Source: Calditrichaceae bacterium (GTDB taxonomy: Bacteria > Calditrichota > Calditrichia > Calditrichales > JBFXGD01). Taken from it: 64,000 nt of DNA. Both the position numbers and the translations under genes were made by a program. Shown piece by piece: positions 25,826 to 35,458 of the stretch. How positions within the stretch are numbered: position 1 is the stretch's first letter; every line of letters starts with the position of its first letter. The stretch spans positions 128,001 through 192,000 of the forward strand of contig JBFXLE010000005.1 of assembly GCA_050173015.1 (NCBI GenBank), read 5' to 3'. Below the pieces are notes generated by a model, which had not been told where the DNA came from, made no database searches, and saw only the letters and a program-made list of their open reading frames with translations.

Positions 25826-25883
25826 CTTATACCGCCAATTTAGGCGGATAAGAACGATAGAATATATACGCACGTTAGCAGCA
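25826..25883 (+). other. attI-like proximal recombination site of the cassette array
   Basis: CTTAT-A-CCGCC...GGCGG-ATAAG palindrome, then the core GTTAGCAGCA at 25874, which complements the end of cassette 1. Confidence 0.6.
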
Positions 25884-25972
25884 ACCATTAAAGAAAATCG
25901 AGTAATGAAAGATTTTTAAAAATTAATTGTAACATATGACTATTGTAATTCGTCAAACAAAAAAATATAATT

Positions 25973-26719
25973 ATGAGACAAATATTTATTTATTTAATTT
26001 TGGCAGGCACAATTTCGTGTAATAATCCGAAACAAGATCAAAATTCTGAAAGTATTAATTCGCAATTGGAAATAAACGATACTATTTCAATTAGATTAAT
26101 TTTACCAAGTTCTTTAGAAAATAGAAGACAAGAATTCCTTGACTATGTTAATTCCGCAAGAAAGAATATCAGAGATTTTTCTGAAAAATATGAGTGGAAG
26201 GATATAACAAAAGATGAATTCATGGATAGTGTTATTATCTTTGACAATAAAAACTATTTTAATAAAACGTTATTAAAACTTGCAGGAGCTGACACATCAA
26301 TAAATTTGCCTGATACATATTGCGCTGCATTGGAAAAAAGAACCTTAGTTTCTGTTTCGCCTGAATTTTATTCAAAAGTATATCCCGAAGGAATAGAAGA
26401 AAATTCTTTTGAAAAATTGCTTACACATGAAATCGCACATCAATTGCATGTGAGAATATTAAAAGGGGACGAAGAAGCCATGGGACCTATTTGGTTTTAT
26501 GAAGGTTTCGCAATGTATGTGGCAAATCAATTTTCAGGATCAAATATTGTTCTTAGTAAAGAGGAAATGATTAAAATAATGGGAAACCCAGACAGAGGCA
26601 GTTATATTAAATATAATTATATTTTTAGGTATTTTGTAAGTAAGATTTCGTTAAAAGAATTAATTTTTAAAGCAAAGAATGAAAATTTCAATGAAGAATT
26701 AATCAAATCGCTTCAATGA
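25973..26719 (+). CDS. Lipoprotein with gluzincin-type metallopeptidase motif (cassette 1)
   Basis: Signal ending TISC; THEIAH ... WFYEGFA. Confidence 0.7.
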   Translation: MRQIFIYLILAGTISCNNPKQDQNSESINSQLEINDTISIRLILPSSLENRRQEFLDYVNSARKNIRDFSEKYEWKDITKDEFMDSVIIFDNKNYFNKTLLKLAGADTSINLPDTYCAALEKRTLVSVSPEFYSKVYPEGIEENSFEKLLTHEIAHQLHVRILKGDEEAMGPIWFYEGFAMYVANQFSGSNIVLSKEEMIKIMGNPDRGSYIKYNYIFRYFVSKISLKELIFKAKNENFNEELIKSLQ

Positions 26720-26767
26720 CAATAAACAAGTCAAGCGAAATTAATGACTGAAAACAAAATGGCATGC

Positions 26768-26898
26768 TGCTAACATCGTGTATAAAACATTGGGGTATAG
26801 GTGGTTATATGAAGTTCCTGCCCCGCATCAAACTTTGGTGTTGGGGGATAGTTCCGTAGCCCGCAATCCCCAACGTTTCATACACGTAACCGTTAGGC
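26768..26898 (+). other. attC-like site 1
   Basis: TGCTAAC...GTTAGGC; arms CGTGTAT..TTGGGG / CCCCAA..ATACACG. Confidence 0.85.
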
Positions 26899-26944
26899 AA
26901 AATTTAAAATTGACTACCAGATAATAAATTTGACCGTGAAATAG

Positions 26945-28210
26945 ATGAAAAATAAAAGTCAAAAGAATAAACTAAATATAGTTTATAATATAGACGCTAG
27001 AAGAATTCTGGATAAAATACCTGAAGAAGTAAAAGTTGCAACGACAATTACATCTCCACCTTATTTTGAAATGAAAGATTATGATTCTGACAATCAGATT
27101 GGTTACGGACAAACTTATGATGAATATTTAGAAGACCTTAAATCAATTTTTGCGGGTGTTTTTCAAGTTACAAAGGACGATGGAACTTTATGGATTGTTA
27201 TTGATACATTCAAAAGAAATAATCAAGTAGTTCCATTACCTTTTGATTTATCTAATAAATTAAAAGAAATTGGTTGGTTGCTCCAAGATATAATAATTTG
27301 GAAAAAAGATAAAACTGTGCCTTGGTCATCTAATGGTTTTATGCAACGTAAATTTGAGTACATTCTATTCTTTTCAAAATCTGAAAATTATAAAACCAAT
27401 AAAGATAATGTTAGAGTTTACGATACTACTCAGCTAAAAAAATGGTGGGTTAAATACCCTGAAAGATATAATCCCAGAGGAAAAGCACTTGAAGAAGTTT
27501 GGGAATTTCCAATACCAACTCAAGGCTCTTGGGGTGACCAATATATACGACATTTTTGTCCTCTACCGCAGAGTATGGTAGCTACCATGATTCAAATTAG
27601 TTCAGATGAAAATGATATTGTCCTGGATCCTTTTGCAGGAAGTGGTACTGTATTGACCCAATCTGCCTATATGAAAAGAAATTATCTAGGATTTGAACTT
27701 AATGAGAGCTACATAAGAATGTTTGAAAATTATCTTAAAAAAACATTCAAAAAGAATAGGAAAGAATACGAGGCATCTGGGCAAATTATTGAACAGGACT
27801 TATTTGAAAAAAGAATTCTTGATTTAAGATCTTTAAAATACGCCAGAGTATTGATTAATAACTTTGAAAAGGCAACAAATATCAGCGATTTTAAAATATT
27901 TGTAAATCCGAAAGGAAGTAGTACAGCTAAAAACAAATTAATAAGAGTTGAATATCAAATTATTGGAGAAATTGACAACCGTGTATTTAAAGATTTAATC
28001 AACCAATTAATCCTTAAACCACCTTTATCCAAATATGGAATTGAACCCTCTTTTATCTTCAAAGAATCGAAAAAGTATAATTTAAAAAAGCATTACGGAT
28101 ATTCGAAAACGAATACTTATTCATTTATTAAAAATCCAAACTTTGATTCTTCAATGATCAGAGTAATAAGTGATATATGTGTTGATCTTAACGAAAATGA
28201 TTACTTATAG
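26945..28210 (+). CDS. Beta-class N4/N6 DNA methyltransferase with a C-terminal extension (cassette 2)
   Basis: TSPPY (motif IV) precedes IIWKK and DPFAGSGT (motif I); about 150 extra C-terminal residues. Confidence 0.9.
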   Translation: MKNKSQKNKLNIVYNIDARRILDKIPEEVKVATTITSPPYFEMKDYDSDNQIGYGQTYDEYLEDLKSIFAGVFQVTKDDGTLWIVIDTFKRNNQVVPLPFDLSNKLKEIGWLLQDIIIWKKDKTVPWSSNGFMQRKFEYILFFSKSENYKTNKDNVRVYDTTQLKKWWVKYPERYNPRGKALEEVWEFPIPTQGSWGDQYIRHFCPLPQSMVATMIQISSDENDIVLDPFAGSGTVLTQSAYMKRNYLGFELNESYIRMFENYLKKTFKKNRKEYEASGQIIEQDLFEKRILDLRSLKYARVLINNFEKATNISDFKIFVNPKGSSTAKNKLIRVEYQIIGEIDNRVFKDLINQLILKPPLSKYGIEPSFIFKESKKYNLKKHYGYSKTNTYSFIKNPNFDSSMIRVISDICVDLNENDYL

Positions 28211-32790: not shown

Positions 32791-32949
32791 GCAAGCAAAT
32801 GTCAAGCGGAGCTCATAAATAATCGTGCATTTGTAAGCTTTTACGTTGGTATGACTTGTTGCGTATGACCAATCGCGCGTATTAATAAACCAGTCAGGCG
32901 GTCTTCTTTAAATCAAACGATCAATTTCCTGTTTTAAACCAAATCCGCG

Positions 32950-33077
32950 CGCTAACAATCCATAAAAATCATCGCTAAACTTCTGCAATTTTAGAAATTT
33001 CTTTTTCTCTTTAATCGTTATGTCTTTTAGTTATGTTTCTGCTTTATTCCTAACGCCTTTGATGCTCAATGTTAGCA
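32950..33077 (+). other. Degenerate attC-like site 5
   Basis: CGCTAAC AATCCATAAAA ... TTTGATG CTCAAT GTTAGCA; 128 bp, weak internal pairing. Confidence 0.55.
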
Positions 33078-33140
33078 GGAAGGCTGGAAGCCACGAAAGA
33101 AACGATAAACTTTAGATCTATAACTTAAAAAAGGAAAATT

Positions 33141-35318
33141 ATGGACAATTCAAAAAATGGTAAATGCCCGGTTACCCACGGCGCAAACACGGACACCAAT
33201 AGTTCCGTTATGAGTTGGTGGCCGGACGCTCTCAATCTCGACATTTTGCATCAGCACGATACGAAAACAAATCCTTTTGGTAAGGATTTTAATTATCGTG
33301 AAGAGTTCAAAAAACTCGACCTGGAAGCTGTAAAAAACGACCTTAAAAATCTAATGACCGATAGCCGGGACTGGTGGCCCGCCGATTGGGGACATTATGG
33401 CGGTTTGATGATTCGTATGGCCTGGCATAGCGCCGGTACATATCGTATTGCCGATGGTCGTGGAGGAAGCAACACAGGAAACCAACGCTTTGCCCCGCTC
33501 AATAGTTGGCCGGATAATGTGAATCTTGACAAGGCGCGTCGTCTGTTATGGCCAATAAAACAAAAATACGGCAACAAAATTTCGTGGGCGGATTTGATGA
33601 TTCTTGCCGGAAATATGGCCTACGAATCCATGGGATTTAAAACATTCGGATTTGGCGGGGGTAGAGAAGATATTTGGCATCCTGAAAAAGATACTTATTG
33701 GGGCGCTGAAAAAGAATGGTTAGGAAAGGATAGATATTCCAACAAATCAGATGAAGAAACACTTGAAAATCCATTGGCGGCAGTTCAAATGGGATTAATC
33801 TACGTTAATCCCGAAGGCGTTGACGGTAACCCGGATCCATTAAAAACAGCGCAGGCTATGCGGGTAACATTCAAACGCATGGCTATGAATGATGAAGAAA
33901 CGGTTGCCCTGACCGCCGGAGGACATACCGTTGGTAAAACACACGGTAATGGCGACGCGTCAATCCTGGGCCCAAAACCCGAAGGCGCCCCAATCGAAGA
34001 ACAGGGTTTTGGCTGGAAAAATCCGGAAGGGAAAGGCAATGCCGAACATACGGTAAGCAGTGGTTTGGAAGGCGCGTGGACCACACACCCAAACAAGTGG
34101 GACAACAGCTACTTTTATCTGCTTTTCACCTATGACTGGGAACTCAGAAAAAGTCCCGCCGGAGCGCACCAATGGGAACCAACCAACATCAAAGAAGAAG
34201 ACAAACCTTTTGACGCGCATGTTCCCGGTGTACGCAGAAATCCTATGATGACCGATGCCGATATGGCCTTGAAGATGGACCCTGAATACCGAAAAATATC
34301 TGAGCGTTTTTATAAAGACCCAAACTATTTCGCCGATGTTTTCGCGAGAGCGTGGTTCAAACTCACGCATCGTGATTTAGGTCCTAAAAGTCGCTATATA
34401 GGCGCTGATGTTCCAAAAGAAGATTTAATATGGCAAGACCCAATCCCGAAAGTTGACTACAAGCTTACAGAATCGGAAATTGAAGATTTAAAAAGCAAAC
34501 TTCTCAATTGCGGTTTATCTCAAACAGAGCTTATTAATACAGCCTGGGACAGCGCCAGAACTTTCAGAAGTTCCGATTACAGGGGCGGCGCTAATGGAGC
34601 AAGAATTCGCCTTGCCCCGCAGAAAAACTGGGAAGGCAATGAACCTCAAAGACTTGAAAGAGTTTTGAGTAAACTTACCGAAATTCAGGCGGGCTTGAGC
34701 AAAAAAGTAAGCGTCGCCGATTTGATCGTTTTAGGCGGTAGCGCCGCGATTGAAAAAGCCGCTGAAAAAGCAGGTTTCAAAATTAAAGTTCCTTTTGTAG
34801 CGGGTAGAGGTGATGCAACAGCCGAAATGACAGACATTGAGTCTTTCGAAGTGCTTGAACCGATTCATGACGGCTACAGAAACTGGCAGAAAAAAGACTA
34901 TGTGGTAAAACCCGAAGAAATGCTTCTTGACAGAACGCAGTTAATGGGACTAACCGCTCCTGAAATGACGGTTTTAATTGGGGGTATGCGGGTTTTGGGA
35001 ACCAATCATGGAGGCACAAAACATGGCGTTTTCACCGACAGAGAAGGCGTTTTAAGCAACGATTTTTTTGTTAATCTTACCGATATGAATAATGTATGGG
35101 AACCGGTTTCTGAAAATTTATATAATATCAGAGAAAGAAAATCCGGAAAAAAGAAGTGGACAGCAACAAGAGTTGATTTGGTTTTTGGTTCTAATTCCAT
35201 ATTGCGCGCTTATGCCGAAGTTTACGCGCAAGACGATAACAAAGAGAAATTGGTGAAAGACTTTGTAAACGCCTGGGTTAAGGTAATGAATGCAGACCGT
35301 TTTGATGTCAAGAAATAA
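33141..35318 (+). CDS. katG: Catalase-peroxidase (cassette 6)
   Basis: [49 protein letters not shown]. Confidence 0.98.
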
Positions 35319-35325
35319 ACCCGGC

Positions 35326-35458
35326 TGCTAACACCATATATAAATAATGGCGGGGCTTGCAGCGTATTAAAGCGTTCTGCCCCGCCATTAACTTTTGTGG
35401 CAATTTGACGGGATTCAGCCCCGAAGTCCGCCACTACACATATGCGTAACCGTTAAAT
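35326..35458 (+). other. attC-like site 6
   Basis: TGCTAAC ACCATATAT..TGGCGG / CCGCCA CTACACATATG CGTAACC GTTAAAT. Confidence 0.85.

Follow-up and report, generated by a model that had tools for sequence, protein, structure and literature searches.

An integron-like cassette array, in all likelihood decayed, behind the 3′ remnant of a predicted Xer-like recombinase gene in a Calditrichaceae bacterium

The window analysed in this work is a 64,000-nucleotide stretch of a Calditrichaceae bacterium genome (contig JBFXLE010000005.1, positions 128,001 to 192,000), and the element in question is an array of six gene cassettes, each closed by an attC-like site, that occupies positions 25640-35458 together with the 3′ end of a tyrosine recombinase gene and an attI-like site at its head. 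All of these features are read from the plus strand. A preliminary description, made from the letters of the window, had reported an integron-like array with six sites at 25874-35458; the six-site array was recovered here, but the head at 25640-25876, consisting of the recombinase remnant and the attI-like site, had been missed.

The remnant (25640-25792) comprises the last ~50 codons and the stop codon of the recombinase gene, has the same orientation as the cassettes and aligns with Pfam Phage_integrase solely at the C-terminal end of that family. It was 81% identical in alignment A3 to G025_278, an intact 278-aa recombinase of a Calditrichaceae relative (G025), and 82% identical by tblastn over residues 234-278. 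The ~84 bp that follow (25793-25876) are non-coding and form the attI-like site, in which an inverted repeat of 12 bp encloses a small hairpin and is followed by a TATAC..CAC box and, at 25874, by the G/TT crossover. Five such heads were found in the genome (97.5% complete, 54 contigs), one on contig C5, three on C9 and one on C43, which can be aligned through attI up to CGTT and diverge beyond it. The attI-like site was 84.5-91.6% identical to the three C9 copies and 88.7% identical over 53 nt to the C43 copy, and each of these copies is preceded by a similar recombinase remnant and followed by a different first cassette. As in integrons, the array begins with an attI-like site next to its recombinase gene, here at 25793-25876, and the same holds for all five heads. 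An identical 15-mer occurs at 25718-25732, where the remnant encodes the catalytic tyrosine and its neighbours, and at 25862-25876, at the attI crossover. A dispersed repeat of ~175 nt (25463-25638), with copies on C45, C1, C10, C4 and C20, abuts the left side of the remnant and may have truncated the recombinase gene. Another dispersed repeat, of 124 nt, flanks the array at 25028-25151 and 35623-35746 (85% identity); its interpretation as a target duplication or island border was rejected because it belongs to a dispersed family with further copies on C10, C4 and C13.

Cassette 1 (25874-26891, 1018 bp) carries an open reading frame (ORF; 25973-26719) for a 248-aa HExxH protein without a Pfam family, and cassette 2 (26892-30136, 3245 bp) carries two genes, for a type II N6/N4 DNA methyltransferase (26945-28210; Pfam N6_N4_Mtase 1.5e-46, PADLOC MTase_II 4.5e-52) and for a 594-aa DGQHR/DpdB-like protein (28219-30003), whose PADLOC match to DpdB was weak (6.3e-6). 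A membrane protein of the CN-hydrolase family (30220-31665; Pfam CN_hydrolase 1.1e-13) is encoded in cassette 3 (30137-31804, 1668 bp), a CAAX/Rce1-like membrane protease (31834-32649; Pfam Rce1-like 2.8e-14) in cassette 4 (31805-32783, 979 bp) and the catalase-peroxidase KatG (33141-35318; Pfam peroxidase 1.2e-73) in cassette 6 (33071-35451, 2381 bp). Cassette 5 (32784-33070, 287 bp) has no ORF of at least 50 aa and a degenerate site, and is an empty or decayed unit. The G+C content was 0.255-0.355 over 25500-32699, which covers cassettes 1-4, against 0.44-0.49 in the backbone to the left, in agreement with the preliminary remark that these cassettes are AT-richer than the backbone; the composition of this cargo is foreign to its surroundings. 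The katG cassette had a G+C content of 0.43-0.48 and the contigs of the genome 0.39-0.45.

The six attC-like sites lie in one orientation, measure 128-133 bp and run from TAAC to GTTA. They are located at 26768-26898 (site 1), 30014-30143 (site 2), 31681-31811 (site 3), 32659-32790 (site 4), 32950-33077 (site 5) and 35326-35458 (site 6, the end of the array), and start about 11-52 nt 3′ of the stop codon of a co-oriented ORF, with the exception of the fifth unit. The TAAC...GTT ends proposed earlier are present in five of the sites, but site 2 has ATT in place of GTT. When aligned, the sites had a mean column identity of 64%, with conserved ends and a variable middle. A covariance model (R1) trained solely on the bottom strands of these six sites and run over the whole window with filters off matched exactly six sites (86-124 bits), and together with direct reading this bore out the positions given in the preliminary description. 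The scores were 121.9, 121.5, 114.2 and 86 bits for sites 1 to 4, 99.1 bits for site 5, which was itself part of the training set, and 124 bits for site 6. Site 1 read on its opposite strand came next with 21.5 bits, and no further match exceeded 15.6 bits. A scan of the window against Rfam at gathering thresholds returned no family and was uninformative on the sites.

For the bottom strand we propose a structure of 24 pairs in which a 6-bp R stem and an 18-bp L stem are separated by an asymmetric spacer whose two sides measure 4-5 nt and 2 nt in all six sites. The pairs of the two stems formed in 116 of 132 cells (87.9%), compared with 35.6-51.5% when the partners were slid by one to three columns; nine of the 24 pairs were altered on both sides among the six bottom strands, and none of 500 shuffles matched the observed structure score. 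The imperfect palindromic arms noticed earlier are thus backed by pairing and covariation. For the top strand the count fell to 93 of 132 cells, since 25 of the bottom-strand pairs are G.T and turn into A.C there, and this predicted pairing bias corresponds to the strand bias known for attC sites. Single-sequence minimum free energy (MFE) folding did not recover the R and L stems of sites 3, 4 and 6, in which alternative central hairpins prevail, and comparative pair counts were therefore used. With regard to the folding of bottom strands that had been suggested as a check, pair counts favored the bottom over the top strand, but no clear single extrahelical bases were seen in the L stem of site 1, whose folded bottom strand otherwise forms the R and L stems. 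The ends of the sites carry cores of the integron type, with TAAC and GTTA in all six (ATTA at site 2), flanking R and L stems that pair with covariation; the full 7-mer consensus (RYYYAAC ... GTTRRRY) fits only some of them, for example GCCTAAC/GTTAGGC.

The first bases of the cassettes had been reported to complement the left end of their own downstream site, as expected if each cassette had once been a circle. On re-reading, the matches of 10/10, 10/10, 8/9, 6/7 and 8/8 held, as did the poor match of the fifth unit; the start of cassette 1, GTTAGCAGCA, for instance, is complementary to TGCTGCTAAC of its own site. Over the 8 nt past GTTA, pairing within the same cassette gave 29 of 48 identities, compared with 12 of 48 between the two ends of one physical site, which agrees with the signature of circular cassettes. 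The 29 identities were reached by 12 of 720 permutations, a test that is weakened by the nearly identical ends of cassettes 1, 3 and 6.

The 50-codon remnant of the window is too short to be scored with NF040815 (site-specific tyrosine recombinase/integron integrase, XerA-like), and the family of the recombinase was deduced from its intact relatives; to the canonical integron integrases the remnant gave no match. G025_278 reached 238.7 bits with this model and a protein of the relative G002 reached 240.3 bits, both above the cut-off of 220, while the score of G025_278 with TIGR02249 was 214 bits, below the cut-off of 265, in two stretches that skip model positions 182-237. G025_278 lacks ~44 residues carried by the canonical integron integrases (IntI) of related genomes, with which it shares 37-39% identity (A3); the additional domain of IntI, with its I2 helix region, is absent from this closest intact relative, which has the simple layout Phage_int_SAM_4 plus Phage_integrase. 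Among proteins of solved structure, its best sequence matches were of the XerA type (155 and 141 bits), followed by IntI4 (131 bits, in two stretches). In a midpoint-rooted tree of 32 rows, drawn without the broken 120-aa ARR_L085 and without Xer_G000_C16, canonical IntI formed a clade of its own (100/99) with none of the array recombinases inside. These and a 298-aa recombinase type fell outside the IntI clade but nearer to it than to the XerC/D-like genes of the genome; with a small sample and a midpoint root, the tree does not settle the branching order of array recombinases, 298-aa type and IntI. Judged by these protein comparisons, the recombinase at the head of the array belongs to an Xer-like family without the IntI additional domain and is not an IntI. 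The 298-aa type also lacks the additional domain and had R1-type arrays on its 5′ side, divergent from the gene, at three of three loci (L047 in G002, L049 in G023 and L050 in G007), which is the classical integron layout. Some other array-head recombinases appear in N-terminally extended open frames of 373-556 aa (L103, L106, L123, L131, L137 and L152).

A scan of one genome per species yielded 532 relatives of the recombinase among 600 matched stretches, of which the best 80 loci (53-100% identity), chiefly from Bacteroidota, Ignavibacteriota, Marinimicrobia and Calditrichota, were used to examine the distribution of R1 sites. R1 gave 96 matches in 34 of these loci, all on the strand opposite to the gene, with 94 in the 299,631 bp downstream of it and two in the 519,283 bp upstream. 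At loci with at least 2.5 kb of downstream sequence, 27 of 37 had a match. The intact unit in relatives consists of a gene for a recombinase of ~278 aa, an attI ~70-125 nt past its stop codon and, on the same strand, promoter-poor cassettes that each end in an imperfect palindrome of ~130-140 nt (attC). The G025 contig (L061) illustrates this order, with the gene, its stop codon, an attI-like site, a cassette starting with GTTAGGGTG and an attC beginning with CACCCTAAC. The attI architecture of the window recurs 3′ of intact recombinase genes in relatives, and a junction motif (TACAC-type box, few bases, CGTTR) was found within 200 nt 3′ of the gene in 28 of 68 loci, compared with 43 of 1220 control windows. 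A genome carries several copies of the array recombinase. Of 40 relatives within the order, 27 had R1-type sites, so that the proposed scan of related genomes with a model built from the six sites gave a positive outcome. Cultivated genera with intact copies of the recombinase include Maribacter, Marinilabilia, Maribellus and Nibribacter.

We also compared the locus between strains. G001, a sister species of the same genus, matched the flanks at 21003-24422 and 39219-41588 with 83-87% identity, and between these flanks nothing was found except repeats and a CAAX homologue (66%), the G001 contigs ending at both flanks. Three public runs (X2, X3 and X9) were compared by their contigs, and the small-share runs X4-X8, X12 and X13 were set apart; positions 26072-29875 had no contig cover in X2, X3 and X9, and this part was counted only where a contig joined across it. 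The flanks and cassettes 3-6 were near-identical in independent public runs, with one X2 contig spanning the stretch from site 3 through cassette 4, site 4, unit 5 and site 5 to katG. In a second X2 contig the agreement with the window lasts until 25732, which is the GTT of the first 15-mer copy in the remnant; 1497 different letters come next, and the match resumes at 30017, on the T in the TAAC of site 2. Divergence at the R′ end was seen in X3 contigs at site 1, which they match through GTTAG, and in an X9 contig at site 3, where it leaves the window at 31800 within the right end of the site. An apparent X9 joint from 26807 to 31747, with only 24 letters on its shorter side, was set aside as a probable repeat artefact. 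Variation at the attI-proximal end with retention of the distal cassettes is as expected for insertion at attI.

Eleven metagenome contigs carry the exact right end of site 1 with other cargo; they share homology with the window only at 26763-26909 and in one 49-nt match to the end of site 3, and they contain 27 R1 sites in co-oriented arrays, consistent with one attC subfamily serving different cassettes. The cassette order, whose comparison across strains had been recommended, is therefore not fixed, X2 having replaced the attI-proximal part and G001 being without the cassettes. The preliminary description had reserved the opposite outcome, a fixed gene order in relatives together with homologous genes elsewhere that lack the cassette boundaries, as evidence against mobility; gene order proved variable, but the katG homologues found elsewhere do lack such boundaries. 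The katG of cassette 6 is the sole copy in its genome by tblastn, and in 12 relatives (61-83% identity) no R1 site was found within the fetched flanks of katG. Its closest relatives, at 82-83% identity, belong to the same order and have katG as an ordinary chromosomal gene; for the two closest, which end in ordinary terminators, the homology is limited to the coding region. In the window the cassette boundaries lie 66 nt upstream of the start codon and 8 nt past the stop codon. This katG looks like a lineage-native, housekeeping-type gene of 2.2 kb that was turned into a cassette, and it bears on the open problem of how cassettes originate.

The array recombinases of this genome appear to have been lost. 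No protein scored above the TIGR02249 cut-off, and a tblastn search of the genome with G025_278 returned only the five 3′ remnants and two XerC/D-like genes with 31-33% identity. The genome has at least three arrays, all without a working recombinase, and R1 gave at least 17 matches at E ≤1 among the best 150 of 1306 candidates scored. A second, larger array on C9 (G000:C9:105800-127050; loci L017 and L018) has at least seven R1 sites and, as its first cassette, a two-gene Thoeris system (ThsB 1e-73, ThsA 1.7e-39). This array also contains a stretch of ~7 kb between sites with ORFs of 973 and 512 aa, as well as two copies (L017, 12238-12575; L018, 3117-3446) of a module of ~330 bp made up of a leader, the 3′ end of a dead recombinase gene, in which the two copies have an in-frame TAG in common, and attI. 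Both copies start exactly at an attC R′ (GTTAG), and the module appears to be a cassette-like unit whose 3′ site is attI and to have moved like a cassette.

Taken together, we consider it highly probable that the region 25640-35458 represents an integron-like gene-capture system in a decayed state. The preliminary proposal of an integron-type gene-capture array in a lineage of the Fibrobacteres-Chlorobi-Bacteroidetes (FCB) type, here Calditrichales, is thus supported by the attC architecture, the signature of circular cassettes, the foreign composition and the turnover between strains. IntegronFinder designates two or more attC sites without an integron integrase as a CALIN (a cluster of attC sites that lacks integron integrases). 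With six sites detected by our own model and no IntI, the array is of the integron type by its architecture and would count as a CALIN under the operational definition in common use. If it acts as integron integrases do, the recombinase would bind the folded bottom strand of attC and exchange strands at G/TT, so that circular cassettes would be inserted at attI (attI × attC) and excised again by attC × attC; catalysis would be provided by the array recombinase and recombination would proceed through single-stranded attC. With nothing but the final ~50 codons of the recombinase left and no intact form of it detected in this genome, the array is probably no longer active and the six cassettes probably represent a stranded record of past captures, in which cassettes 1 and 2, the most AT-rich and closest to attI, would be the most recent. 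On a broader scale, we lean, with little more than even confidence, towards the view that a second gene-capture system of the integron type is operated by Xer-like recombinases without the additional domain, that it is widespread in bacteria of the FCB group (here Calditrichota, Bacteroidota, Ignavibacteriota and Marinimicrobia) and seen in their phages, and that these enzymes recombine folded attC sites of ~130 nt at G/TT without an I2 helix, which is otherwise considered indispensable.

The alternative with the greatest weight, though in our judgement an unlikely one, is that of an ordinary CALIN, the cassettes having been captured by a canonical IntI since lost or encoded elsewhere and the Xer-like remnant being an unrelated neighbour. 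The TAAC...GTTA cores fit the classical R″ and R′ cores, 21 of the 41 genomes searched within the order and class encode a canonical IntI, and R1-type sites were found next to or near a canonical intI in two contigs, abutting it in G005:C154 and at 1.4 kb in G035:C13. However, all five heads in the genome combine an Xer-like remnant with the same attI, the canonical IntI clade contains no array recombinase, and 94 of 96 R1 matches in the best 80 loci lie downstream of a co-oriented Xer-like gene, whereas four loci with an intact canonical IntI (L051-L054) had no R1 match, with filters off, in the 0.5-3.3 kb available on the 5′ side of the gene. Inverted-repeat scans of the canonical IntI loci L051, L052 and L042 likewise revealed nothing attC-like, the contigs being short and an absence of arrays not being implied.

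It is far less probable that the modules were moved by the housekeeping XerC/XerD, as proposed for the pdif modules of Acinetobacter plasmids, in spite of the two full-length Xer-type genes that the genome retains (on C19 and C10) and of a dedicated recombinase that is dead in all five heads. The proteins from C19 and C10 share only 31-33% identity with the array recombinase and fall on a distant branch of the tree, and the conserved attI directly 3′ of a dedicated gene argues for a cis-linked enzyme. The modules known as pdif are bounded by inverted pairs of ~28-bp XerC/XerD binding sites. The sites of the window are instead hairpins of 128-133 bp with long arms in a single orientation. The least probable explanation, which we regard as very remote, is that the sites are structured intergenic repeats, similar to repetitive extragenic palindromes (REP) or terminators, that do not recombine and that the genes are not mobile units. 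The genome is indeed rich in dispersed and tandem hairpin repeats, the position of the sites about 11-52 nt past stop codons is terminator-like and their MFE z-scores are mostly ordinary, but repeats of this kind would leave unexplained why the start of a cassette is complementary to the site at its own downstream end and not to the neighbouring site, why homology among unrelated contigs begins and ends at site borders, why strain differences break at GTT and TAAC, why the sites cluster downstream of one recombinase family and why the G.T bias favors the folding of one DNA strand only.

Several observations weigh against a gene-capture system run by these Xer-like recombinases. The link between recombinase and array is one of position, ten of the 37 loci with at least 2.5 kb downstream had no R1 match, and canonical IntI (above the TIGR02249 cut-off) is common in the order and class sample (21 of 41 genomes), with an R1-type site beside a canonical intI fragment in the two short contigs G005:C154 and G035:C13. 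In the former (L046, G005:C154:205-1116) the R1-type attC abuts, on the same strand, a canonical intI without its first ~48 codons, as if a cassette or array had been joined inside the integrase gene; in the latter the canonical intI is broken. The genome under study, at 97.5% completeness, yielded no intact recombinase of the array family, of the 298-aa type or of canonical IntI. Among the sites themselves, site 2 has lost the G of GTT and reads ATTA with a crossover triplet ATT, which is a weak point, as is site 5, whose right half is degenerate (G+C 0.34) and which forms 18 of the 24 pairs. In single-sequence folding, site 1 had a z-score of -2.68 and the other five had ordinary values of +1.80 to -1.66, and the bottom strand had the better MFE in only five of the six sites. 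The replacement in X2 has its right edge at R″ (the TAAC of site 2) and not at R′, as simple cassette exchange would predict; this can be explained if, as the metagenome contigs suggest, one attC subfamily serves different cassettes. Contigs, moreover, prove presence and never absence.

The system closest to the array is that of sedentary chromosomal integrons and CALINs. These share with the window co-oriented and mostly promoterless cassettes, TAAC...GTTA palindromes with a G/TT crossover, circular-cassette ends, a bottom strand that is predicted to fold better, attI at the head and a cargo of foreign composition that includes defence-type genes, and PMC4889954 and PMC9024848 call an array without a working integrase a CALIN. 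The window differs from them in its recombinase, which like its intact relatives has no IntI additional domain and whose gene points toward the array and not away from it, with attI directly past the stop codon, and in sites that stand at the long end of the attC size range. That domain is called unique and necessary in PMC9668308, which cites Messier and Roy 2001. Integrons whose integrase is co-oriented with the cassettes and has attI just past its 3′ end have been reported and have the same layout as the window, but those integrases are reported to carry the additional domain, which the family of the window does not.

Other known elements resemble the array in part. The delta-attI-type gene cassettes of mobile integrons (PMC12901181) are similar to the C9 module in that the 3′ site is attI, but the C9 module has no cargo gene and only a dead recombinase 3′ end. 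According to PMC9892861, the CALIN of Polaribacter phage P12002L is likewise a Bacteroidota-associated array with methyltransferase cargo, has sites of 63-72 nt with no recombinase reported there, and includes one site that recombined with attI1 under IntI1. R1 matched short sites between the methyltransferase genes of this phage (best 36.7 and 36.3 bits, E ~2e-7), but this is weak evidence, since relative to the genes these matches lie on the other strand than do those of the window. The chromosome-dimer resolvases XerA, XerC and XerD (PDB 4a8e, 5hxy and 1a0p) share the simple domain layout, and the best sequence matches among solved structures are of the XerA type; unlike these, the array gene heads cassette arrays, is present in several copies per genome and, in the small midpoint-rooted tree, groups with IntI rather than with the XerC/D-like genes of the genome itself. 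Searches of published main texts yielded no account of attC arrays that have at their head a recombinase lacking the additional domain.

An integrase with an extra domain is the feature by which integrons are both defined and sought, and if a simpler Xer-like enzyme serves the arrays of FCB bacteria, a large reservoir of mobile cassettes, whose cargo here includes methyltransferase and defence genes and a catalase-peroxidase, would be counted as orphan arrays or missed. Under that definition, integrons have been considered very rare in Bacteroidetes, with only In0 known earlier in addition to one complete integron of Salinibacter, according to PMC9024848. Should the proposed role of the recombinase be true, the additional domain would not be what makes an integron, and either the system would have arisen twice or the array family would stand near the ancestor that preceded IntI. 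The view that the I2 helix enabled the recombination of single-stranded attC, as put forward in PMC7790495, would then need revision. The cultivated hosts with intact copies make the question of the recombinase directly testable.

Outside the array, a GNAT acetyltransferase gene (24526-24969; Acetyltransf_1 2.2e-18) lies just upstream and, like the array, is missing from G001; its 3′ end contains a cluster of differences in runs X2, X3 and X9. Downstream, a unit of ~38-67 nt with a hairpin of the CCCCGAAGGGG type is repeated in tandem at least 14 times over 35880-37000, directly upstream of an IS200-like Y1 transposase gene (37006-37470; Pfam Y1_Tnp 3.4e-26), an arrangement similar to that of REP and their associated tyrosine transposases (REP/RAYT-like). 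Over 35880-37470, several alternative joints are seen among the contigs from the run that is the likely source. Finally, a 21-nt tandem repeat of the GAAGTTACGCCGGAAAGTTCT type is present at 25222-25290, and one X9 contig is shorter by one unit at 25238.

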